A DNA stretch of 64,000 nt. Origin: Escherichia phage F13. Numbering within the stretch: position 1 is the stretch's first letter; the number at the start of each line of letters is the position of its first letter. The notes below the pieces were generated by a model. The model saw only the letters and a program-made list of their open reading frames with translations, made no database searches and had not been told where the DNA came from. This document shows positions 1 through 24,655 of this stretch, in pieces. The stretch is from the sequence record OP745617; one strand, given 5' to 3'. The translations under genes and the position numbers were made by a program.

Positions 1-20
1 TCTTTATAAGGTACTCGACC

Positions 21-368
21 ATGGCTCATGTTAAAGACGAAGTGTTGTTTGGCGCAGAGATTAAGAAACGTGTCAGAGAAATGGCAGGAGAAGAAAGAGT
101 GAAGTCGCTGCGAAAAGGTTTTGATCACATCAATGGTGTATCCGGCACGAAGGAGATGGGCGTGTTGGTAAAAGACATTCGCATTGGCGATGTCATGGTC
201 ATCGACCGACAAGCACGAGTCGTTATCCAGGTGCAACCGAACGATGATGAAGGATGTGTCCTATTGAAGCTGAAGAAGCTTTCATCCAGCCCAGCAAAAG
301 CCGTCATCAAGAAGGTCTGGCCCGAAGGATTACGCAAACTCATTCGTCGACCCGTGGAGAATGTATAA
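21..368 (+). CDS. hypothetical early protein (115 aa)
   Basis: ORF in a tightly packed plus-strand array; stop overlaps the next start (TAATG). Confidence 0.4.
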   Translation: MAHVKDEVLFGAEIKKRVREMAGEERVKSLRKGFDHINGVSGTKEMGVLVKDIRIGDVMVIDRQARVVIQVQPNDDEGCVLLKLKKLSSSPAKAVIKKVWPEGLRKLIRRPVENV

Positions 369-604
369 TGGAAGATTATATCAATGCGATGTACATGGCA
401 TTCTATGTCGTGCAACTTCCCAATGGCGCGGTATTTTATGGCGAGTATACCTTTGACGTTCAATATGACGTTTCAGAGCGTACAGTGTTAACAAGGGAGT
501 TGATTGCGGACCTTAAGGACGACATAAAACGCGTCGCGCGGCAGCAGTTCAATTTGGATGACACCGTCATCGTTCGAATTACCGGAATAACAGAGGTGCA
601 GTGA
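368..604 (+). CDS. hypothetical early protein (78 aa)
   Basis: Internal ATG of ORF 254..604 placed at the stop of the upstream gene; translationally coupled. Confidence 0.35.
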   Translation: MEDYINAMYMAFYVVQLPNGAVFYGEYTFDVQYDVSERTVLTRELIADLKDDIKRVARQQFNLDDTVIVRITGITEVQ

Positions 605-933
605 TGACCCGTGATCAGATACTCGCCGCGCATGAGCGTGAGAAGGTGAAAGAGATTTGTAAAAGGCACGCATTATTTGCTGACTCTTATGTGTTCTTAA
701 AGTCTTGCATCAAACAAAACGCAAGGATGGATAACACTGTATTGACATTCAACCTTTTGTCTAACGGAGCAAAGCTTGATGCAATATGCGGGTGCAGAAT
801 TGCCAGCATGACGTTTGAACGAGGTGCTCACAAAGACTCTTTCTTCTATCAATTCTCCCACCGGACGGGTGATACAAAGATAACAAGGACAAGGCACGAG
901 ATAGAGATTGACCTACTCCACTATGTAAAATGA
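601..933 (+). CDS. hypothetical early protein (110 aa)
   Basis: ATGA overlap with upstream gene; several Cys residues. Confidence 0.4.
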   Translation: MMTRDQILAAHEREKVKEICKRHALFADSYVFLKSCIKQNARMDNTVLTFNLLSNGAKLDAICGCRIASMTFERGAHKDSFFYQFSHRTGDTKITRTRHEIEIDLLHYVK

Positions 934-949
934 ATGTCAAAGGTGATTT

Positions 950-1144
950 ATGAGTGTTAAACTAGACATACAGAAAACTCTTGATAAGGCCGCTGCAATA
1001 AAGAACTTCATGGATTGTTATGCCAGTTGCACGCTTTATGGAAGCGTGCCAAACGGCGACGTAAGGCCGGAAAGCATGCTTGAGTGGCTTGTTGAACATC
1101 GTTACATCATCGACATAGTTGATGAATACATAAAGCAGAAATGA
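950..1144 (+). CDS. hypothetical early protein (64 aa)
   Basis: ORF in the early gene array. Confidence 0.35.
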   Translation: MSVKLDIQKTLDKAAAIKNFMDCYASCTLYGSVPNGDVRPESMLEWLVEHRYIIDIVDEYIKQK

Positions 1145-1168
1145 ATATCAAAAAGGTGAGCTAAATGC

Positions 1169-1197
1169 TTGCCTTTTCTTTTATCAATACTTATACT
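1169..1197 (+). promoter_or_regulatory. sigma70-like promoter (-35 TTGCCT, 17-bp spacer, -10 TATACT)
   Basis: Hexamers read directly; part of a conserved ~80-bp block also present at 2399-2476; followed by GAGGTG RBS and ATG at 1229. Confidence 0.5.
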
Positions 1198-1228
1198 CTT
1201 TTCATCAAGACGAAAAGTGAGGTGAATT

Positions 1229-1546
1229 ATGATTTACTTAGGCATCGACAAGGAACAAGACGAGCGGTTAGGAAGCGTGTTAAACGTAGACTTGAACACA
1301 GCTGTACACATCAAGCCTTGGCCAGATGGCCACCCCGACGTAGTTGTACCCGTTGCGCCTTGGACGCGTTACGTTGCCATTGACAATAACGGCCTTGTTC
1401 ATTGTTATTCAGAAAGGCCAACGTATTTCGAGATGTACCGCGAATGGCTCATGACTGGATGGGCAAAGGTGCGCTGTTGCGGCGAAGTCGGTCTGGATGG
1501 CTGGAGCTTCGAGGCTAGTGAATCGTGTGTCGAGGTGCAATTATGA
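1229..1546 (+). CDS. hypothetical early protein (105 aa)
   Basis: ORF with GAGGTG RBS immediately downstream of the promoter block. Confidence 0.45.
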   Translation: MIYLGIDKEQDERLGSVLNVDLNTAVHIKPWPDGHPDVVVPVAPWTRYVAIDNNGLVHCYSERPTYFEMYREWLMTGWAKVRCCGEVGLDGWSFEASESCVEVQL

Positions 1547-1761
1547 ATGGCGCGCTGGGTAAGTTGTCTTTCAACAAGCGTAATGAGCTGCGCATGGTGT
1601 CGCGCTTTCAGTTTGTATTGAACGCAATGTCGAATATTGCCATCACGATGCTTCGCGCTGATTGCCCTGCTGAAAAGCGTGAGACTTTATTTGAACGTCA
1701 CAACCAATTACGAAAGGCTGCTTATAAGCTGCAGCAATATGCTATGGAGTATGCAAAATGA
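1543..1761 (+). CDS. hypothetical early protein (72 aa)
   Basis: Internal ATG overlapping upstream stop (ATGA). Confidence 0.4.
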   Translation: MNGALGKLSFNKRNELRMVSRFQFVLNAMSNIAITMLRADCPAEKRETLFERHNQLRKAAYKLQQYAMEYAK

Positions 1762-2141
1762 GAATGAAGCGTTGCCCTTACTGCCACGATGTGATGCACC
1801 TTCCACACGAAGAGTTTGTGCAGCACATGACTAACTGTGATAAGAATCCTAATAGCGAAAGCCAGCTTGAAGAAAGAATGTTCTTGGTGTCATTCAAAGC
1901 TTCTGCTTATGAAGTGCAACGTTCTTACGGCGCACCAAGTACGATTTACTGTCCAACAACATTGAGAAGTGATATCGACTCAATTCAGCTTGCTGCCTGG
2001 ATTAACGTTAAGGAAGGAATCACGCCGCACTTTATTGCGCGCATCCAATCTCAGATTCTACAAATGAAGCGCGAATACAACCGTGACATCACTGAAGTGA
2101 AGGTGTTGTCCATCACGCCAATGAATAAGGAGTTGCCGTGA
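1758..2141 (+). CDS. hypothetical protein with Cys/His cluster (127 aa)
   Basis: ATGA overlap; N-terminal CPYCHDVMHLPHEEFVQHMTNC suggests a zinc-binding motif. Confidence 0.45.
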   Translation: MRMKRCPYCHDVMHLPHEEFVQHMTNCDKNPNSESQLEERMFLVSFKASAYEVQRSYGAPSTIYCPTTLRSDIDSIQLAAWINVKEGITPHFIARIQSQILQMKREYNRDITEVKVLSITPMNKELP

Positions 2142-2398
2142 ACAAGGGTCCGATGACTAAGTTAGCCGTTGCCGCGCGGAAGCTTCGACAAGCCGTTAAT
2201 GGGTCGCGCCCCGTGGTGTTAACACTCGACGACGCAAAGGCACTGGTAGAGCTACTCGACGAGCACAACCGACGCAAGAATCTGGAGAACACATTACGCT
2301 GGCGCGTTACTCCGAAAGGGCGGGAGAGTGAAAAGAAAGCTTACTTGCGACGCAAACTAAGGTCGGTCGGCCTCCACGAAGAGGCGAAGAATATTTAA
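2138..2398 (+). CDS. hypothetical basic protein (86 aa, GTG start)
   Basis: GTG start overlapping upstream stop; Arg/Lys-rich C-terminus. Confidence 0.4.
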   Translation: MNKGPMTKLAVAARKLRQAVNGSRPVVLTLDDAKALVELLDEHNRRKNLENTLRWRVTPKGRESEKKAYLRRKLRSVGLHEEAKNI

Positions 2399-2420
2399 TT
2401 CAAAAAGGTGATCTAAATGC

Positions 2421-2448
2421 TTGCCTTTTTATTTGCCTGTATTATACT
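2421..2448 (+). promoter_or_regulatory. sigma70-like promoter (-35 TTGCCT, 16-bp spacer, -10 TATACT)
   Basis: Second copy of the conserved promoter block; followed by AAGGAG RBS and ATG at 2477. Confidence 0.5.
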
Positions 2449-2476
2449 TAGTTCATCAAGCAAAGGAGATTTGATT

Positions 2477-2779
2477 ATGAGTTACGACGAAAGGTTTGGC
2501 AGAAGTGGATTATTTCACGATGCTGTATGTAAGGACAGCCAAGATGTTGTCTGCGTATTCAACGTTGATTCTTACGGCGTGCTCAAACCGTTTAAAATCG
2601 GTGAGACATACGAATTGTTTCACGGATGGTTGACGCGTCGCAACAACCTTCCTGATATGGAAGTCTGGTGGATAGAATATAAGGGCCAGGCCCATCGCTG
2701 CAAGGTTGTAGAGGTGCGCGGCGTGAACTACTATCAATCTGTTATCAGCGGCTTTGTTTTTAAAGAGGGTGAGCTATGA
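2477..2779 (+). CDS. hypothetical early protein (100 aa)
   Basis: ATG with AAGGAG RBS; the longer ORF start at 2417 lies inside the promoter and is rejected. Confidence 0.45.
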   Translation: MSYDERFGRSGLFHDAVCKDSQDVVCVFNVDSYGVLKPFKIGETYELFHGWLTRRNNLPDMEVWWIEYKGQAHRCKVVEVRGVNYYQSVISGFVFKEGEL

Positions 2780-3081
2780 GTACCGAAGCAATGAAGAAAA
2801 AGATTTTGAACGCTTTGCAAGAAGCCGTGAACTGTGGTGCAATTAAAGAGTTCAAGGAGACGCAAGAAGGCGGTGAGCCAGTATTCTTCTTTAAGAATAA
2901 AAAGGACGGTGTAGCGGCAATCATGCTATTAAAGAATAGTGATGATACATTTATTCTTTGCGTCGGCGGTTACGACCTTGTCACTGATGATGCATTCATC
3001 ACTTGTGTCGACGGCCTTAATCCTATGTTGACATTTGAGCGTCGCGCCATCCGTGTTGCAACGTTTGGAGGGAATTTATGA
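2776..3081 (+). CDS. hypothetical early protein (101 aa)
   Basis: ATGA overlap. Confidence 0.45.
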   Translation: MSTEAMKKKILNALQEAVNCGAIKEFKETQEGGEPVFFFKNKKDGVAAIMLLKNSDDTFILCVGGYDLVTDDAFITCVDGLNPMLTFERRAIRVATFGGNL

Positions 3082-3263
3082 GTACCGAAGTCCATAACGC
3101 TTCAGCAATGGTAAGCTTTTACCGTAACAAAGGCGTGTCACTCGTTAAAACGCCGCAAGGCATGATGTTCTTTGGCACGCGATTCCTTAAGGCTTCGGAG
3201 CGTGAAACGCTGTCCAAGTTTGACCAGAAAACATTGCACGCAGTTTGGAGAAGACAACAATGA
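3078..3263 (+). CDS. hypothetical early protein (61 aa)
   Basis: ATGA overlap. Confidence 0.35.
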   Translation: MSTEVHNASAMVSFYRNKGVSLVKTPQGMMFFGTRFLKASERETLSKFDQKTLHAVWRRQQ

Positions 3264-3553
3264 GATTAAGCCTAGCTCAGATTCAGACATTATATCGCAT
3301 GGAAGACGGCACATCATACATGTTGCGCGGCGACCGCAAGAAGGCTTATGAGAAACGGCCTTCATTGTTTCACGACGTTAACGCGCCATCAATCCCTGTC
3401 TTATTCCGGCTGGGCCTTGTTGACTGGAAAGTGCCAGGAGAGAAAGACCCAACTCGATATTCACCGGTTGTGATGACAAAGAAAGGTCGTGCAGCATTAA
3501 AAGAAATTAAAGAGCATATGGCTGGAGAAAAATACTATGACATCAAATCTTAA
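3260..3553 (+). CDS. hypothetical early protein (97 aa)
   Basis: ATGA overlap; motif GAGAAGACAACAATG also precedes the gene at 3718. Confidence 0.4.
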   Translation: MRLSLAQIQTLYRMEDGTSYMLRGDRKKAYEKRPSLFHDVNAPSIPVLFRLGLVDWKVPGEKDPTRYSPVVMTKKGRAALKEIKEHMAGEKYYDIKS

Positions 3554-3717
3554 GGCCCGTTTGTTATTCATCAAGCCGCATGTGCCATATAAGATTAGTA
3601 AGCGCACCTGGCTTAACATTTACAACCGCAGCGGCGACCGTTGTCTGTACAAGGCGAAGCGACGCAAGAAGGTATATTCTTACACAACATCTATCAAATA
3701 AATAGGAGAAGACAACA

Positions 3718-5528: not shown

Positions 5529-6061
5529 TGGGTAACGATGCAGGATGGGGCAAGCCGCGATACTCAAAACTTGCCCACTACTTTGACGACGGCGAGCAAA
5601 TCAGCTTGTGCGGTAAATTCAACAAAGGCAATACAGAGTTGACCGATGCTCAAGAAATGGAATCAAGTCTGACAATTGGTGATTGCTCTAAGTGCAGAAA
5701 GGCATTATATGAGTTATTGACTCTAAGGGGATTGAAAGCGGCAAAATCAAGGGATGAATGGGTCATCAACGTCTGTGAAGGGAATCCAGAATTGATGGAT
5801 GAATTGCTGAAAACAGATGCCGTTAATGCCATTTTCAAAAGGCATTATAAAACTTGTATGCGTTACAAGATGAATGATGATATTATTTTTATGGTATTAT
5901 CTTATTCAAGGAGCACAATGGACGTCAAAAAGCTTCGACAATATCGCCACAAGGTCATGTGTGAATTGCGCCGTTTAGGAGTTATTGTGGATAATAATGT
6001 CATTAAAACGGAGTTAAAGAAGCGTGATAAAAGGAATGGTGACTGGAAGGTCAGCGGATAA
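5525..6061 (+). CDS. hypothetical protein (178 aa) with possible Cys cluster
   Basis: ATGA overlap; SLCGKF...DCSKCRK spacing suggests metal binding. Confidence 0.5.
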   Translation: MMGNDAGWGKPRYSKLAHYFDDGEQISLCGKFNKGNTELTDAQEMESSLTIGDCSKCRKALYELLTLRGLKAAKSRDEWVINVCEGNPELMDELLKTDAVNAIFKRHYKTCMRYKMNDDIIFMVLSYSRSTMDVKKLRQYRHKVMCELRRLGVIVDNNVIKTELKKRDKRNGDWKVSG

Positions 6062-6319
6062 ATAAACACTGTTTACGTGTTTTGAAGAATGGAATGTGTG
6101 CAATGGGTCGCTTTATGCGGCCTTTTGTCGTTTGGGTCATGTTTTGCTATGGAATAATTATGAGGTTGTGTTTTATTTATTAATTGTGCGGAAATATTTA
6201 GAAATATATATAAACAGGATTGTTAATATTTTAATAGTTTATGGCTATTGGTCCGTGGTGTTTGTTAGATTCTATCTATGGATTGGATTTTCTTGGGTCG
6301 TGAAACGTGGTTTTGAACA

Positions 6320-6690
6320 CATTTGATACGCCTAAAATACGGTTAAAAATTAAGCGTATCATGGCTGCAGGCCGCGCCGTTCCTGGATTCCTCTTTTCCA
6401 AATTGGTACACCCTTACGTCATGATACGTCATGGTTTTTTATCCGTATCAGTGTACAACCCTTGCCGCGCCTGGCTTGTACATTAATCTTACGGATGATA
6501 CGGATAAAACTGAGCATCGTTATATATAGAATTCGAAAAATTAATTAACTCCATTTTAAAAACATTTATATTAATTTTTTTCATATCCTCATACTTATGT
6601 TAATTTATATATTTAACGTATCATCCGTAAGATATAAGTAAAAACAAAGACTTGCGGCAATACGGATGATACGTCATGATACGCTTCAAC
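6320..6690. repeat. iteron-like module: direct and inverted ATCCGTATC / GATACGGAT 9-mers flanking an AT-rich core (copy 1)
   Basis: Repeats read directly (tatccgtatca, ttacggatgatacggat, cgtatcatccgtaag, tacggatgatacgtcatgatacg); AT-rich core 6530-6615; homologous module at 22845-23135. Confidence 0.7.
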
Positions 6691-6874
6691 CAGCCAGCAG
6701 CGGCTAAGTCGTTGATTTGCATAACAAGCGGCAAAAGGGATGGATTTCTTTTATACGTATCAAACAGTACACCACGCACCACGGTCCGTTATCCATTCAG
6801 CAATATGATTTGTGTACGTTTATAGCCATAATGAACATCAATCTGCACTTGAATATAATGTCCATCCATTGTAT

Positions 6875-8095
6875 AATTCACACTATTAATTTGCACTATG
6901 GGATTTTGCACTATGAGTCAAGATTATGTAGCGATGCCTGAAGACTTTGAAGACCCGCGATTCGCAGAGCACAATCAGGCTTTATTCGATGAGTTCATTG
7001 ACCTTGTTATTCAGGGTCATGACATGCGCGCAGCTTTTGCACTAGTATTTGGAATGGAAGTTGCAACGGATAACTACACTGGCCAGCGAATCCTTTGCAC
7101 GCAACGCAATCCATACTACAAGATGCGCTTCAAAAAGCGTATGGAAGAGATGCCACTCAAGGATTTGTGGAGCGTAAAAGGTGCAATTCACAATTTGGTT
7201 AAGCTTGTTCGTGATCCAGAAGTCGCGGCGTCAGCCAAGCTTAATGCTATTCGTGAACTGAATATCATCTACGGCATCACGATGATTGATGAAAACGGCA
7301 ATAGTAAAATGGGCCGTTCCATGGACGATTTCTACAAGGATTTTGGAGAGGCGGCCAAAGAAGGTGAGCAATTCTCCCGCCACTAGCCAATTTGCACTAT
7401 AAAACGGCCCTAGAACACATTTTCTCCAATTCTAGGGCCATCGGTAATACGACGGGGAAGGTTACAAACATAAACGCGTTAGAAAGTGTATTATTATAAG
7501 TCATCTTTTAGTCACCTTACGTAACAATTTACGACCTTCAACCGTCCAATCGAACGACTCCACCAGCAGATTCGCACTATAACCTAAGACGATGCGTCCC
7601 TTCTCGTTATCGACCCGCCAACAAGTCTCGAATAGCATTCGATTTGCACTATTAACTATTGCCGCAACTCGCGTAGGATAAGCGCAATTTGAACTATGGT
7701 CGTAAAGGGATAAGGTGCGACCACTTCCGATGGACAACGTAGCGATGAGAATGAGCGTATTCATAAGCCACCAATTTGCACTATGAAAAGCGACCCCGAA
7801 GGGCCGCCATTCGATTAGATAATCTGGAAGGTATAGGATTTGTTGCCGAACTCAAAGTTCAAGCGCCCAGCTTCCTTAAGCTTCATGCGGAAGCGAATGT
7901 GCTTGCTATCCGGCAAGCCCAGCACGGCGAACGCTACGCGGACCGATTTGAACTCGCCTACACCCTCGACCATAACGCCGTTACGGGTGAGACGCTTTTG
8001 CGCCACTTCCTTATTATCCCAACTTTTTGCAATACCTTCGCTATTCGAACGGCGATGGGAAGGAGTTCCATTTTGCACTACGCAATTTGCACTAT
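6875..8095 (+). repeat. array of about 10 copies of the 12-bp motif (A/G)ATTTGCACTAT, all on the plus strand
   Basis: Copies at 6875, 6888, 6903, 7389, 7569, 7641, 7686, 7773, 8071, 8083 (some with one mismatch). Confidence 0.7.
6898..7386 (+). CDS. hypothetical protein (157-162 aa); speculative small terminase or DNA-binding protein
   Basis: ORF starting inside the first motif copies (alternative ATG at 6913); the terminase idea is only from size and the adjacent repeat array. Confidence 0.4.
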   Translation: MGFCTMSQDYVAMPEDFEDPRFAEHNQALFDEFIDLVIQGHDMRAAFALVFGMEVATDNYTGQRILCTQRNPYYKMRFKKRMEEMPLKDLWSVKGAIHNLVKLVRDPEVAASAKLNAIRELNIIYGITMIDENGNSKMGRSMDDFYKDFGEAAKEGEQFSRH

Positions 8096-8441
8096 CGTTT
8101 AGACCGCTCTTAACGAAGGCTTCATACTCTTCGTCGGTCATCGCGTCGAGTTCTTCCTGGGTCGGCTCGGCCTTTTTAACGACCGCACGCGCCTTATGCG
8201 TTTTTACATCGCTGGACACTTCCTCGCGCGACTTCGCTTCGGGGATGGGCGATTCGTTGGACGGCTCATCGAGCGCGTTTAAGGACTCGATTAACGCGAT
8301 TACGCGAGTCTCGGCGGTACGGCGGTCCGCAAATTTCTTAATCGGCTTCGAACCGGAATTTGCATTATAAAATGCAACGAGGTCGGCGGTCTTAGTTGCG
8401 ATAACGTCGCCGCTAGTCGAGAAACGATTTAAGCTAACCAT
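7815..8441 (-). CDS. hypothetical protein (208 aa)
   Basis: Protein-like composition (acidic stretch EEELDAMTDEEYEAF); the antisense plus-strand ORF looks like a shadow. Confidence 0.45.
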   Translation of the reverse strand: MVSLNRFSTSGDVIATKTADLVAFYNANSGSKPIKKFADRRTAETRVIALIESLNALDEPSNESPIPEAKSREEVSSDVKTHKARAVVKKAEPTQEELDAMTDEEYEAFVKSGLNDSANCVVQNGTPSHRRSNSEGIAKSWDNKEVAQKRLTRNGVMVEGVGEFKSVRVAFAVLGLPDSKHIRFRMKLKEAGRLNFEFGNKSYTFQII

Positions 8442-8521
8442 AATGAACTCCTATTTGTTAGGGCGCTAGGCGCGAAAGAATTTTATTAAAGCGCCGCGCA
8501 CGACGCTCTAAAAATCCTCTC

Positions 8522-8806
8522 TTACGCTTCGACGAGGGAGAAGGTCTCAAATTCTTCTTCGCCCATAACGAGTAAGATGTTACCGATTTCGACCGCTTCG
8601 AAGAAGTATCCGTTAACGTTTACTTCGAAGGCTTCGCGGTCCGATTCCGGTAACGCCGCGTAAAGTTTAAAAGCCTCGGCGACCGTTACCCCACCCGCCT
8701 CGATGGTCTGGTCTACGTTCGCGGCGTAGACTTCGGATAAAATTTGTTTTACGCCGTAGTTCTCGACGATAGCGTTACGGATGGAAGAAACGTTAAGAAT
8801 AGCCAT
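8522..8806 (-). CDS. small protein (94 aa), paralog family member
   Basis: Aligns with the 9744..10034 product (SxIR, VY..NVD..IE, NG[YF].[FY]..EIG); own promoter upstream. Confidence 0.5.
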   Translation of the reverse strand: MAILNVSSIRNAIVENYGVKQILSEVYAANVDQTIEAGGVTVAEAFKLYAALPESDREAFEVNVNGYFFEAVEIGNILLVMGEEEFETFSLVEA

Positions 8807-8874
8807 TTTAAACTCCTAGTTGGGAGAGGCGTTAACGACCTATTCGCTAACTCATCCCGTCCCGATATGAGTAC

Positions 8875-8902
8875 ATTATAATATAGTGTAGAAAAAAGTA
8901 AA
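8875..8902 (-). promoter_or_regulatory. sigma70-like promoter on minus strand (-35 TTTACT, 16-bp spacer, -10 TATAAT)
   Basis: Reverse complement of 8875-8902; inverted copy of the promoter module at 9345-9373. Confidence 0.5.
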
Positions 8903-8946
8903 GCACTTTTTCGATAAAAATGCGATAAATTATTTTATCTTTTTTC

Positions 8947-8974
8947 TTTACTTCTTCGTACACTCGCGTATACT
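8947..8974 (+). promoter_or_regulatory. sigma70-like promoter (-35 TTTACT, 16-bp spacer, -10 TATACT)
   Basis: Diverges from the minus-strand promoter; drives the gene at 9031. Confidence 0.45.
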
Positions 8975-9030
8975 TGTTTATATCGAGACGGGCGATGGCC
9001 CTTCCTTCTACTAGCATCGGGAGCTTTATT

Positions 9031-9333
9031 ATGACTACTTTAATCTCTTCCATCCTTACTTACGACGAAGACCGTTTAACCGTTCGCTCTCTTATCGCCG
9101 CCGTTAACGCCGAACTAGAATCTAGCGCCATTAAGGTCCGCGCGGTTGCCTTCGTCGGTCTTTCCTTCGACGATATCAAGTACGCCGAACGTAGCGCCAT
9201 CCGCTTCGCGAAGACCGACGACGAAGCCGTTACCCTTATCGAGACGGTTACTCCGCGCGGCGAAACGTTAATTATCGTCGAGTATATCGACGTAGAAGGC
9301 GATAAGGCTTATAAATATTTTATCGCAAAATAA
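9031..9333 (+). CDS. small protein (100 aa), probable distant member of the same paralog family
   Basis: ATG with GGGAG RBS; 3' 200 bp of this gene is duplicated in the tandem repeat. Confidence 0.5.
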   Translation: MTTLISSILTYDEDRLTVRSLIAAVNAELESSAIKVRAVAFVGLSFDDIKYAERSAIRFAKTDDEAVTLIETVTPRGETLIIVEYIDVEGDKAYKYFIAK

Positions 9334-9744
9334 CGAAAAAGTGCTTTACTTCTTAGTACACTAAGACTATAATGTTTTATATCGAGAGGGGATGAGGTAG
9401 CGAATAGGTCGCTACCCTCCCGACTAACTAGGAGAATATTACGCGCGGTTGCCTTCGTCGGTCTTTCCTTCGACGATATCAAGTACGCCGAACGTAGCGC
9501 CATCCGCTTCGCGAAGACCGACGACGAAGCCGTTACCCTTATCGAGACGGTTACTCCGCGCGGCGAAACGTTAATTATCGTCGAGTATATCGACGTAGAA
9601 GGCGATAAGGCTTATAAATATTTTATCGCAAAATAACGAAAAAGTGCTTTACTTCTTAGTACACTAAGACTATAATGTTTTATATCGAGAGGGGATGAGG
9701 TAGCGAATAGGTCGCTACCCTCCCGACTAACTAGGAGAATATTA
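9139..9744. repeat. tandem direct duplication, 2 x 303 bp (9139-9441 and 9442-9744)
   Basis: Near-identical units read directly; each carries the gene 3' end, promoter (TTTACT-17-TATAAT at 9345-9373 and 9648-9676), leader hairpin and RBS. Confidence 0.85.
9442..9639 (+). pseudogene. promoter-less 3' fragment of gene 9031..9333 created by the tandem duplication
   Basis: Copy of the C-terminal coding part; at the junction the RBS is followed by ACG rather than ATG. Confidence 0.5.
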
Positions 9745-10034
9745 TGATCACTTTATCCGCTATCCGTGCCGCTCGCGTCGAAACTTCCGAAAACTCTAAC
9801 GTATTTGGCGAAACCTTAGAGAGCGTTTATCTCTCTAACGTTGACGCGATTATCGAGTCTATTTATGAGCCGATCAACTTCCTCGACCTTTACAAGTATC
9901 GCGATGAGGACATCGTGTCCTACCGCGTAACGATTAACGGCTTCGTTTATACGATTACCGAAATCGGCGGCGAATATCTCGCTGTACCGCAACTCGGCGG
10001 CGAAGTAACTTACTTTAAAATCGTAAGCCTTTAA
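9744..10034 (+). CDS. small protein (96 aa), paralog of 8522..8806
   Basis: AGGAG RBS; clear alignment to the 8522..8806 product. Confidence 0.55.
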   Translation: MITLSAIRAARVETSENSNVFGETLESVYLSNVDAIIESIYEPINFLDLYKYRDEDIVSYRVTINGFVYTITEIGGEYLAVPQLGGEVTYFKIVSL

Positions 10035-10045
10035 GGAGAAGAAAA

Positions 10046-10255
10046 ATGATTAATATGAATAACTCTCTTAACGCGCGCGCCCATCGCACCGCCGTCATCG
10101 ATATGTTCCGTGAGCTTAAGGACTTATGCGATAATATGAACGCGATGTTATCCATCGGCGGCTGGGGATACGAAGAAGAAGTTAAATATGCGGTTATGCG
10201 TCGCCGTCGCGATAACGTCCTTGGGCAAATTAAACGCGCCGGATTATTCCTTTAA
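10046..10255 (+). CDS. hypothetical small basic protein (69 aa)
   Basis: ORF with AAGGAG RBS; RRRRD motif. Confidence 0.4.
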   Translation: MINMNNSLNARAHRTAVIDMFRELKDLCDNMNAMLSIGGWGYEEEVKYAVMRRRRDNVLGQIKRAGLFL

Positions 10256-10281
10256 TTATAATCAACCACCGTTACTAATAG

Positions 10282-10306
10282 GCCGCGCTTAGTCGCGGCT
10301 TTTCTT
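10282..10306 (+). terminator. Rho-independent terminator
   Basis: GCCGCG-cttagt-CGCGGC stem-loop followed by TTTTCTT. Confidence 0.6.
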
Positions 10307-10419
10307 CGTCCCTATCTCGGTGCGCTCCTACGCGAAAACTCCTTTATCCTTCCCTTCGTCGTCGCATAATCTTCGTCGATATGCGCCTTAGTTCGCATAA
10401 CAGGTATTACGTTAAATGG

Positions 10420-10960
10420 AGAACATCGCGTAAGTCCTTGTTTTATATAGACACCTATATCGGACCGTTAGGGCGGGTCGCGTAAGTCGTTGTTTTATAA
10501 AGGCGCAAAACTTTCCCTTCGTTCCGAACTAAAACGAGGAATATGCCGACCCTTCGTCCGAAAATAGTACGCATGCGAAATTACATGCATCTAGAATAAT
10601 CCCCACAGATATTATCCTACACGCAATCATTCGCTTTCGAATCATTATGCTTCATATTATTATGCGTCGAATCATTCGCTTTCGAATTGTAACGCTGGAA
10701 ACTGTAACGGCGATTGATTATTGCGTTCGTGTGGTTTTTATGGCATGGGTCTTTTGGTGCGTTTTGCTACTTGATGGAATTTGCGGTACACTAATCAAAA
10801 TACGACACATTTAGTCTACTAACTTTTCAAAGAAAAAGTCCTGGACAGTACCGTACTATTTTGTACCCACAGGAAATTTGCAGTACACTCCTGCGCGCGG
10901 CAGGCAAAATAAAGGGCCGCACCAAGCGACCCACGATTCACGATTCACGGTTAAAGCAAC
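10420..10960. repeat. noncoding region with several short direct repeats
   Basis: cgcgtaagtc(c/g)ttgttttata x2 (10425-10500), aatcattcgctttcgaat x2 (10628-10700), ggaa(a)tttgc(g/a)gtacact x2 (10774, 10872), cacgattcacgattcacgg (10934). Confidence 0.6.
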
Positions 10961-10969
10961 ATCCACCCA

Positions 10970-11416
10970 CTATTCACTCTTATGGGCATCACCAAATCCA
11001 TCAGCAATCTGGCTGATCAACGACTCAATGGACACAGTTTTACCAATTGATCGAGCGGTTATGGCGAGCATATTATCAATCAAACCATGATTGACACAAT
11101 ACTCTGGAGATTTAGAATCATCTTCAGAACAACCAAAAAGCTGGTCGCGCAGACTTTCAAGAGAACGCTCAATATTTTCCAACTTCTCTTCTAAATCGGA
11201 TTGGCGACGTAAAACCCATGTTAAGTCTCGGTTGCCGACTTCCAACCCATCAGAATAGCAAGGTGGAGCGTCAATTTTGATGCTGGAACCAAAAGCAGTG
11301 CCGCTGCCTTTAGTATAAGTATGGCTCATAGAATCATTTTTATTTGACATATCATTACCTTTAATATTTGGGTGATTAACAATAACTATAATAAAGCCGC
11401 ATAGCGCGGCATTCAA
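10970..11416 (-). CDS. hypothetical protein (148 aa)
   Basis: ORF; coiled-coil-like central region. Confidence 0.4.
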   Translation of the reverse strand: MNAALCGFIIVIVNHPNIKGNDMSNKNDSMSHTYTKGSGTAFGSSIKIDAPPCYSDGLEVGNRDLTWVLRRQSDLEEKLENIERSLESLRDQLFGCSEDDSKSPEYCVNHGLIDNMLAITARSIGKTVSIESLISQIADGFGDAHKSE

Positions 11417-11447
11417 ATCGATTTATTAATTGTGACGATTGGATTCA

Positions 11448-11642
11448 TCAATCGATACCAACTGAGCCGATGTGCTGAAAGAACTCTGAATAAACTTCCT
11501 TCCAGTACTTACGCGCTGCTTTCTGGGCTTGTCCTTTGCGCTTGAAGCTTTTGCCTTGAAAGATGAAACGGTCGCTTGTCGCGCGATACTCCACCACACC
11601 TTCCAGCCATTGTAAGAATGCTACTGATTCATTTTTATTCAT
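11448..11642 (-). CDS. hypothetical protein (64 aa)
   Basis: ORF. Confidence 0.35.
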   Translation of the reverse strand: MNKNESVAFLQWLEGVVEYRATSDRFIFQGKSFKRKGQAQKAARKYWKEVYSEFFQHIGSVGID

Positions 11643-22816: not shown

Positions 22817-22844
22817 ATTCATCGGCAAAGGATTGCCGCGAGTT

Positions 22845-23135
22845 TTATACGTATAATGACGTATCATCCGTATCAAGTAAGTTGTTGTTTTCAAAAGAAT
22901 CTTACGGATGATACGGATGATACGCGTTGCCGCCGTACTATATAGGAATTCAAATAAATTAATTTAAAATTATATATCTAATTTAATTTTATTTTTTTAT
23001 AAACTCTTATATATATGAAAAGTATCCGTATCATCCGTATCATCCGTAGCACACCAGTGATAGCGCGGCTTATACACCGATACGGATAAAAATACGCCTC
23101 ATTTTATCCGTATCATCCGTATCACACTAATAAAG
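22845..23135. repeat. iteron-like module (copy 2): GATACGGAT / ATCCGTATC 9-mer arrays flanking an AT-rich core
   Basis: ttacggatgatacggatgatacg (22901-22923), gtatccgtatcatccgtatcatccgta (23021-23047), tatccgtatcatccgtatc (23105-23123); shares the 21-mer aatcttacggatgatacggat with copy 1. Confidence 0.7.
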
Positions 23136-23239
23136 GCGCGGCTATATCGGTTGTTATACATATTCAAACCATAATTATTGTTTGCCTAAGTTTTTTTCAT
23201 TAGATATAATACACAATACTTATTTGAGGGTGGATGCGA

Positions 23240-24655
23240 ATGCAAACGGCACGCGAAATTGACAAAAATGGATTCTTGACGATTATGGGTTGTCCGATTT
23301 CGTCATTTGGCATTTTTGATTATTCTGCTGGTCAAGTTGGTCTTGATGGTGATCCGAATCGCATCGTAAAAGTCTATCGCCCTGAGTCAGCGGTGAAAGA
23401 CCCCGAAGCGATAGATTCATTCAAAAATATCCCTTTCATCGACAATCACGAAATGCTTTCTGGATTTGAAGGTGATGAGGATAACACAGCACCCGAAGAG
23501 TATGGCGTTGATGGCGTTCTGACTGGCAATGTTTATTATGACAAGCCATGGATGCGCGGCGACCTTAAAGTGTTTAGCCGTCGTCTGAAGAAGGCCATTG
23601 ATTCTGGAAAGGTTGACTTGTCTTTGGGCTATGACTGTGAATTCATCATACAGTCTGGAGAGTTTGACGGGCAGCCGTATGAAGTGGTGCAGACAACTCT
23701 TCGCGGCAACCACATTGCTCTCGTGGACGTTGGTCGAGTACCAGGTGCACGGGTGCTGGATGGTCGTTGCTTTGACCATCTTTGTTTGACGACTGTAACA
23801 CCATCCAACGAGGATTTAGACATGCCAAAACCGTTAAAAGGTAAAGCGCGTGATAATGCTGTTGAACAGCTGAAATCACTGATCCCTGCGCTCGAACAAT
23901 TTCTGAACGAAGAGAGTACTGAAGCTGCTCATCAGGACGAAGTTGAAGTGAAAGCAGAAGAGAAGGACTCAACCGAAAATCGTGAAGAAGTAATGGTTGA
24001 TCCAGAAGTCAAGGCAGAAGCAGAAGAAACCCCAGAAGGTGAAGAGAAGTTTGAAGTTGAAACTGAATCTCACGCTGGCGGCGAACTTCCGCAATTGATC
24101 AGCCAAATCGAAGCACTTATTGCAAAACTGAAAGGTGGCGCGGTAGGTGATGAAGAAGAAGTTGAAGCCGAAGTCAAAGACGAAGAAGAAGTTGAAGTCA
24201 AGGCTGAAGATGTATCACCTTGCGACAAAGCTGAAGATGTGGTTAGCGGCCTGCAAAACAGCAACGTAAAGGGGGCTTCGGTCGAAAAAGATGACAAACC
24301 GACAAAAGCGGCGAAAGCGTCGCCAGGTCCAGCAAAAGGGGAACACTCAATGGCATCTGATTCAGCAGTTGCTGCTTTCTACGCTGATTCTGCTCGTAAG
24401 AATAGCCTCTACCAGCGCCTGTCTAAAGTTGTTGGTGCCTTTGATCATGCAACTATGGACTCCAAGTCCGTAGCGAAATATGGCGCTAAAAAGTTAGGCT
24501 TGAAGTGCGTTGATGGTGCTGAGTTTGACGTGGTGGATAATTATCTGCGCGGCGTTGAGCACGGTCAGAAACAGCGTGTAGTCGCAAAACAAAAGGCCGC
24601 TGCGGATTCTGCAGCAACTGACGAAGCATTTGAAGCTTGGTTGAAAGGGGAATAA
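23240..24655 (+). CDS. scaffolding / prohead protease-like protein with acidic region
   Basis: Position between head morphogenesis and capsid; long Glu-rich stretch (EVEVKAEEKD...EEEVEAEVKDEEEVEVKAED). Confidence 0.5.
   Translation: MQTAREIDKNGFLTIMGCPISSFGIFDYSAGQVGLDGDPNRIVKVYRPESAVKDPEAIDSFKNIPFIDNHEMLSGFEGDEDNTAPEEYGVDGVLTGNVYYDKPWMRGDLKVFSRRLKKAIDSGKVDLSLGYDCEFIIQSGEFDGQPYEVVQTTLRGNHIALVDVGRVPGARVLDGRCFDHLCLTTVTPSNEDLDMPKPLKGKARDNAVEQLKSLIPALEQFLNEESTEAAHQDEVEVKAEEKDSTENREEVMVDPEVKAEAEETPEGEEKFEVETESHAGGELPQLISQIEALIAKLKGGAVGDEEEVEAEVKDEEEVEVKAEDVSPCDKAEDVVSGLQNSNVKGASVEKDDKPTKAAKASPGPAKGEHSMASDSAVAAFYADSARKNSLYQRLSKVVGAFDHATMDSKSVAKYGAKKLGLKCVDGAEFDVVDNYLRGVEHGQKQRVVAKQKAAADSAATDEAFEAWLKGE

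Follow-up and report, generated by a model that had tools for sequence, protein, structure and literature searches.

What is the role of a repeat-dense gap of about 600 bp, poor in genes, that lies where two converging sets of genes meet in the genome of Escherichia phage F13? The stretch analysed here (sequence record OP745617; 64,000 nucleotides, referred to below as the window) contains this gap around positions 10,420 to 10,960, and the initial annotation, made from the sequence alone, viewed it as a possible regulatory hub or origin. By comparison with related genomes, we found that the physical right end of the packaged DNA falls inside the gap, at the inner boundary of a long direct terminal repeat (DTR), and we consider that the gap most likely carries signals for making chromosome ends rather than an origin or a promoter hub. 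In this reading, which rests on sequence comparison and to which we assign a probability of roughly 0.55, the repeats would be cis-acting sites for end formation by the terminase and for duplication of the DTR, placed within a terminator-insulated spacer at the DTR boundary.

The 751 bases around the gap match 28 phage records, all of them Wifcevirus (E. coli/Shigella myophages of 67-72 kb), with vB_EcoM_SP13 being 99.9% identical to the region and the other 27 records 89-96%. The assembly that the window represents is circularly permuted and comes from a Wifcevirus, a virulent myophage of E. coli that has a genome of ~68 kb and carries a long DTR. In the deposited SP13, WFH and Ro157lw genomes, the left and right copies of the DTR differ by 0 mismatches. 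In these three records and in Mansfield, the repeat starts at ...AATTAACTCC↓ATTTT and ends at ...GGCATGGGTCTTT↓TGGTGCG (the arrow marks the cut), at the same nucleotide in all four (window 6552↓6553 and 10754↓10755, respectively); in SP13, WFH and Ro157lw the copies at both genome ends stop at GGGTCTTT↓TGGTGCG. The DTR and its length are already published and in GenBank (PMC6753283, PMC6454146, PMC6563267): PhageTerm gave 3,673 bp (1..3673) for Mansfield (PMC6753283) and, in an independent run, 3,533 bp for Ro157lw, with the class T5-type "long DTR" (PMC6454146), while a terminal repeat of about 3.7 kb was given for WFC and WFH by Korf et al. (PMC6563267). The PhageTerm ends of Mansfield and Ro157lw both map to the same window nucleotide. 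Among relatives the DTR measures 3533-3899 bp, and its length of 4202 bp in the window is due to a private duplication of 303 bp. Since the boundary lies inside the gap, positions 10302-10754 constitute the last ~450 bp of the right end of the virion DNA, and the ~160 bp at 10755-10913 begin the unique DNA that follows the left DTR copy. The sequence around the inner cut (10680-10770) is nearly invariant in the alignment.

From stop codon to stop codon the gap spans 714 bp (10256-10969), and the claim that it forms the junction between a plus-strand block and a minus-strand cassette was borne out. Predicted intrinsic terminators close it on both sides. The terminator of the plus-strand DTR genes is annotated as such in WFH, WFC and Mansfield, and that of the minus-strand cassette, in which the stem is kept and the loop is variable across relatives, in WFH and WFC. 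The absence of convincing open reading frames (ORFs) was likewise confirmed. In alignments of 14-16 Wifcevirus genomes, on which all conservation values given here are based, 7-15% of the columns in the gap are variable without a third-position excess, and within the ORFs of the gap the variable columns are evenly distributed by codon position (e.g. 4/5/5), unlike the neighbouring genes with their strong third-position excess (4/2/47 for the small terminase TerS, 12/18/97 for a gene of 208 amino acids). Pfam and PHROGs searches of ten small ORFs (25-55 amino acids) in the region returned no match, and the longest ORF of the gap (10647-10814) has six different end points in relatives. A scan of 6000-11500 against Rfam revealed no family at E <= 1, and RNA folding of 150-nt windows on both strands gave a best z of -1.94. 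Pairwise identity in the gap is 0.91-0.99 (0.81 in the D1 units described below), with peaks at 10413-10462 (0.984), 10713-10762 (0.986, containing the cut) and 10813-10862 (0.981), compared with 0.79-0.96 for the flanking genes (0.79-0.92 for those of 96 and 126 amino acids). Cumulatively, these data show that the repeats of the gap are genus-conserved DNA elements, neither genes nor structured RNAs.

All direct repeats named in the initial annotation were found in their place, and the self-similarity of 10300-10960 exceeded that of all 200 shuffles and of 195 out of 200 (97.5%) genome windows of the same size. Four families, D1 to D4, can be distinguished, each with two copies only, at a spacing of 45 (D1), 52 (D2), 35 (D3) and 97 bp (D4). 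D2, the core of D1 and D4 are unique to the gap within the 64-kb window, and the short core of D3 showed no genome-wide enrichment. The consensus of D4 is GGAA(A)TTTGC(G/A)GTACACT, and its two GGAA(A)TTTGCRGTACACT copies are both set in a TTG-17-TACACT geometry. D1 is the most variable part of the gap, with a single unit present in Bas100. The tetramer GTAC is depleted about twofold across the window (134 observed vs 247 expected from base composition), and the segment just outside the DTR end (10786-10886) holds 5 copies, making it the densest 120-nt GTAC window of the 64 kb. Two inverted repeats, one pairing 10258-10275 with 10704-10721 and the other pairing 10746-10761 with 10918-10933 across the cut, were rejected, as their complementarity is lost in relatives.

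The link between the gap and the other end of the DTR came from a comparison of the non-coding DNA at the left end (6553-6912) with the gap at the right end, in which a box with the pattern AAGTCNTTGNTTT, corresponding to the core of D2, was found on both sides. Performed in an unbiased manner, this comparison of left-end with right-end non-coding DNA outscores 146-147 of 150 control regions. The box occurs exactly four times in the window, two per DTR end, against an expectation of 0.05. The pattern was set after the matches had been seen, but an exact 12-mer derived from D2 already matches 6641-6653. The four sites, their orientations and their spacings of 65 and 52 bp recur in every Wifcevirus locus that spans the DTR, with only 3 sites in RCIP0319, and N is the sole position of AAGTCNTTGNTTT that varies across the genus. 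No copy was found in the 4.8 kb of the genome that the window lacks, and ~115 unrelated viral loci together gave one match, a chance one. In the form of exact copies, the AAGTCNTTGNTTT box marks both ends of the DTR and nothing else in the genome. The features of both ends are listed in Table 1.

Table 1. Coordinates in the window of the DTR, its two ends and the elements of the non-coding gap.
Feature	Position	Strand	Details
DTR	6553-10754		4202 bp, single copy in the permuted window; placed from the end copies of SP13, WFH and Ro157lw and the Mansfield annotation
DTR inner boundary	10735-10775		...TTTTTATGGCATGGGTCTTT↓TGGTGCGTTTTGC..., cut 10754↓10755; junction common to four records
Non-coding repeat-dense spacer	10302-10913		610 bp, between convergent terminators
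Intrinsic terminator of plus-strand DTR genes (predicted)	10280-10301	+	8-bp stem, then T-run; invariant in 16 genomes
Intrinsic terminator of minus-strand cassette (predicted)	10914-10932	-	GGGTCGC-TTGGT-GCGGCCC, then TTTATTTTG
D2, TCGCGTAAGTC[C/G]TTGTTTTATA[T/A]AG	10426-10450, 10478-10502	+	23/25 identical, 52 bp apart
D2 copy a, core box AAGTCCTTGTTTT	10432-10444	+	
D2 copy b, core box AAGTCGTTGTTTT	10484-10496	+	258 bp from DTR end; invariant in 16/16 genomes
D3, two CCCTTCGT(T/C)C.. copies	10515-10571 (starts 10515, 10550)	+	35 bp apart
D1, two tandem 45-nt units, each with AATCATTCGCTTTCGAAT	10609-10653, 10654-10698	+	
D4 copy a, GGAATTTGCGGTACACT	10776-10792	+	in TTGCTA-17-TACACT frame 10764-10792; begins 21 bp outside DTR
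D4 copy b, GGAAATTTGCAGTACACT	10872-10889	+	in TTGTAC-17-TACACT frame 10861-10889
GTAC cluster and palindrome AGTACCGTACT..TTGTAC	10848-10867		
G+C hairpin CCTGCGCGCGGCAGG	10890-10904		abuts D4 copy b; stem conserved
Left terminus	6486-6633		cut CTCC↓ATTTT (6552↓6553) in 22% GC spacer between inverted repeats
Left-end box AAGTCTTTGTTTT	6641-6653	-	89 bp inside left DTR end
Left-end box AAGTCGTTGATTT	6706-6718	+	154 bp inside left DTR end
TerS homologue	6913-7386	+	first gene in DTR, 360 bp from left end

At the left terminus the cut is framed by perfect 17-bp inverted repeats, ATCTTACGGATGATACG, at 6486-6502 and 6617-6633. Copies of GATACG flank the terminus on both sides (9 in 6325-6756), and to the left of ~6485 the DNA is mosaic among relatives, with the cut-site word AATTAACTCCATTTT being invariant. 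The first gene of the DTR encodes a homologue of TerS from Pseudomonas phage E217 (PDB 7UXE; phmmer E=7e-34), in agreement with the Mansfield annotation; in most records it is annotated as hypothetical. Because it lies inside the DTR, the terS homologue is present twice in every virion. A search for loci related to this TerS retrieved only Wifceviruses, and a scan of the collection with AATTTGCNGTACACT returned mostly chance matches, the true relatives being only close Wifceviruses, at least 92% identical. In Serratia phage Hera, TerS is 36% identical and synteny is kept; since its repeats are unrelated, no deeper conservation can be used.

Taken together, the position of the cut, the paired boxes at both ends and the start of D4 only 21 bp outside the boundary provide repeated conserved words close to the cut, as is expected of a terminase recognition site. 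We propose that the repeats would act as protein-binding sites when replicated concatemers, with one DTR copy per junction, are processed. The box pairs just inside the DTR ends would be recognised by the terminase (TerL together with the TerS encoded near the left end) or by an accessory protein, with cutting or nicking on their outer side (left, CTCC↓ATTTT; right, GGGTCTTT↓TGGTG), after which strand-displacement synthesis would duplicate the ~4-kb DTR. Transcription would be kept off the site by the terminators on either side, and the D4 and GTAC elements just outside the boundary may also be bound by protein or may help end formation as weak promoters that point rightward. It is also conceivable, although we regard this as doubtful, that AAGTCNTTGNTTT is the site of one phage protein that marks both DTR edges and couples the initiation of DNA synthesis to end formation.

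Partial parallels exist in other phages. At the concatemer junction of T7, arrays of short repeats adjoin the 160-bp terminal repeat, and cis sequences for concatemer processing reside there. The Wifcevirus boundary resembles this arrangement in that the DTR is exact and non-permuted, short repeats lie at the boundary, promoter-like elements are found just outside it and two repeats have to be made from the one present at each junction. It differs in that the DTR is ~25 times longer, the phage is an unrelated myovirus, phage RNA polymerase promoters are absent and the sequences have no similarity. Repeated TerS-binding elements are also known from pac and cos sites, such as the R sites of lambda cosB and pacL/pacR of SPP1. 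Here too, short repeated words lie near a terminase cut, and terS of the Wifceviruses adjoins one of the two clusters; however, a Wifcevirus needs two distinct cuts ~4 kb apart, the right-hand cluster is 3.4 kb away from terS, and the nearest characterised TerS, that of E217, showed no detectable DNA binding in vitro (PMC9611059).

Several observations weigh against the proposal that the repeats direct end formation. The DTR of WFC (MK373777; 3,784 bp) stops 83 nt further to the right than those of SP13, WFH, Ro157lw and Mansfield; the junction in that record, CAAAGAAA↓AAGTCC, falls at window ~10835↓10836, between both D4 copies. One D1 unit is dispensable, as exactly one unit is missing in Bas100. 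Boxes and cuts are not evenly spaced, with 89 and 154 bp separating them at the left end and 258 and 310 bp at the right end, and the two cut-site sequences lack significant similarity to each other. Direct and inverted comparison of the two cut-site contexts yielded only chance-level words (AATTCGAAA, TAAAAAC, GTACA(T/C)TAATC), which are not present in all lineages, and, with 62 occurrences of GCCGCGC in the window, we discounted an apparent inverted match of TGCCGCGC on the outer side of both boundaries. Further, a fifth copy of AAGTCNTTGNTTT, with one mismatch, is located at 22879-22891, where it forms the middle of a palindrome of iterons that precedes the head protease gene; as this is an internal element away from the ends, the protein that binds the box may serve replication or late transcription rather than packaging. 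E217 TerS, moreover, showed no appreciable DNA binding in vitro (PMC9611059), and the function of every repeat is inferred.

The gap could instead be a regulatory hub, in which D4 would represent two tandem weak rightward sigma-70 promoters, D1 would supply leftward promoters and GTACACT and AATTTGC would be operator words. By inspection, the D4 frames score 8/12 (TTGCTA-17-TACACT) and 7/12 (TTGTAC-17-TACACT) and have identical 17-nt spacers, and each D1 unit contains a weak minus-strand promoter match, TCGAAA-18-(A/G)ATAAT, at 9/12. The overlap of D4 with other motifs, pointed out in the initial annotation, is real: the heptamer AATTTGC is common to D4 and AATTTGCACTAT, a motif found in 8 copies (at most one mismatch) between 6888 and 8368, all on the plus strand, against 0.6 expected (13-fold), and GTACACT also occurs in the spacers of three strong promoters of the form TTTACT-N16/17-TATAAT (8947, 9345 and 9648). 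Nevertheless, GTACACT alone, with 7 copies vs 3.65 expected, was matched by 7 out of 100 shuffles and is not significantly enriched, and the sharing of a heptamer is only suggestive (p ~0.01, a rough estimate made post hoc). Moreover, a promoter scan of the gap detected no plus-strand site of at least 9/12 and three minus-strand matches at 9/12, two of them being those inside the D1 units, downstream of which there is no conserved ORF or structured RNA. Transcription from the D4 frames would run rightward and enter the minus-strand cassette at its 3' end, where no plus-strand gene follows. A sigma-70 promoter cluster with sites of at least 9/12, a spacing of 16-18 bp and a gene downstream is therefore not what the gap contains, and the restriction of the D2 box to the two DTR ends would be left unexplained. 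In our opinion, what stands of the proposed hub are the promoter-like D4 frames and the shared heptamers, and as an account of the gap as a whole it is unlikely.

With regard to AATTTGCACTAT itself, looser copies are present at 7031, 7570 and 8070, and its copies keep to the plus strand even within the minus-strand ORFs 7501-7764 and 7815-8441. They are found on either side of the terS homologue, with one lying over its start codon. By inspection the motif is not a sigma-70 promoter.

The closest described analogue of the gap in position and conservation is Repeat Region 3 of phage T5 (Davison, bioRxiv 10.1101/866236), an untranslated block of 1.2 kb. Most of that block belongs to the left repeat, with 270 bp extending past the repeat's edge, and its conservation exceeds that of the neighbouring ORFs. 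By this analogy, the gap might be a pause or injection-stop region, at which entry of the DNA would halt until the DTR genes have been expressed. The positional correspondence is close: the Wifcevirus block of ~610 bp has ~450 bp inside the DTR and ~160 bp beyond it, is similarly untranslated and repeat-dense across the inner boundary and is more conserved than the adjacent small ORFs, and the repeat of Ro157lw was classed by PhageTerm as T5-type, long (PMC6454146). However, the T5 block has eight paired DnaA boxes as well as an inverted-repeat module of 131 bp whose partner lies far away. In 10250-10960 we found no match to the DnaA box TT(A/T)TNCACA (at most one mismatch), and there is no large inverted repeat of the IRD'-spacer-IRC' type, only ones of 10-18 nt, of which those examined are not conserved. 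Because the DnaA boxes and the large inverted-repeat module are absent, the gap is not a member of the T5 Repeat Region 3 family, even though an untranslated block overrunning the inner DTR boundary is common to both. In addition, the DTR encodes no ORF longer than 208 amino acids and no protein with a Pfam match, with the proviso that no direct comparison with T5 A1/A2 was made. T5 is a siphovirus with proven two-step entry, whereas the Wifceviruses are myoviruses, for which two-step entry has never been reported. We conclude that a role of the gap in halting DNA entry is improbable.

An origin of replication, in which the direct repeats of the gap would be iterons for a phage initiator, could be suspected from the presence of several direct-repeat families in 600 bp and from the occurrence of the D2 box in two origin-like iteron and AT-rich elements. 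Yet the gap contains no AT-rich unwinding element, its GC content being 0.39-0.49 in every 100-nt bin of 10300-10999 as compared with 0.22 at 6500-6599, and neither a DnaA box (at most one mismatch) nor an IHF consensus was found in 10250-10960. The GATACG iterons are absent from the gap. As origins, the two elements at 6486-6633 and 22840-23130, each with an AT-rich core between inverted iterons, are far more plausible, and the suggestion that the gap itself is an origin thus did not hold up; we regard it as very improbable. In the element at 22840-23130, inverted ACGGATGATACGGATGATACG repeats enclose an AT-rich core of ~90 bp, and a AAGTTGTTGTTTT box occupies the middle of the element. About 70 nt of it are paralogous to the element at the left terminus, the gene for the head maturation protease (23234-24655) follows shortly downstream, and we see it as a candidate origin or control region for late genes.

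Finally, that the gap harbours hidden small genes or a non-coding RNA is scarcely credible: ORFs of 30-55 amino acids have been called by some annotators (Mansfield_008/009, SP13_010, four in kaset) and weak minus-strand promoter matches lie upstream of an ORF of 39 amino acids (10455-10574), but the flat distribution of substitutions by codon position in every ORF, the variable ends of the longest one, the missing PHROG, Pfam and Rfam matches and the unremarkable fold scores described above all argue otherwise.

Some features of the surrounding DNA deserve mention. The perfect tandem duplication of 303 bp (2.0 copies, 9139-9744) repeats the 3' part of ORF 8974-9333 and also doubles a strong promoter, TTTACT-17-TATAAT (9345-9373, 9648-9676). 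It is absent from SP13 and 13 other aligned Wifceviruses and is, for that reason, either private or an assembly artefact. Within the DTR, pairwise identity falls to 0.33-0.49 in 8463-8812 (minus-strand ORF 8522-8806) vs 0.95-0.99 in other parts, which suggests a replaced or highly divergent gene cassette. A gene of 69 amino acids at 10046-10255 (PHROG 10377, 'transcriptional regulator') is an indel among Wifceviruses, being present in the window, SP13, Ro157lw, Eco4M-7, ECML-117 and FEC19 and absent from WFH, WFC, Mansfield, Bas98-101, kaset, RCIP0319 and ECO71P1; the gap downstream is conserved with or without it. At the opposite border, a CACGATT heptamer (x2.6, 10932-10949) separates the stop codon of the minus-strand gene from the terminator. 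The equivalent unit, CCCACGA, reaches ~6 copies in Mansfield and is altered in Bas99, which identifies the array as a variable-number tandem repeat.

In kind the region is an ordinary one; what is new is the detail, namely the anatomy of the boundary, the repeats, the shared box and the architecture of the termini, none of which is described in the Wifcevirus papers found. For annotation, the gap should be labelled as a repeat boundary with two terminators and not as hypothetical proteins of 30-50 amino acids, as in several records. Rebooting from assembled fragments generated by polymerase chain reaction is established for vB_Eco4M-7 (PMC11074155), which makes deletions of single boxes practical in the Wifcevirus group. 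The mechanism by which long repeats arise was called unknown by Casjens and Gilcrease 2009, as quoted in PMC6454146. Our findings offer nucleotide-precise, genus-conserved candidate signals on both sides of one long-DTR boundary, and, should the AAGTCNTTGNTTT box be recognised by a single phage protein at both edges, they would define a cis/trans system that sets where a long terminal repeat starts and stops.

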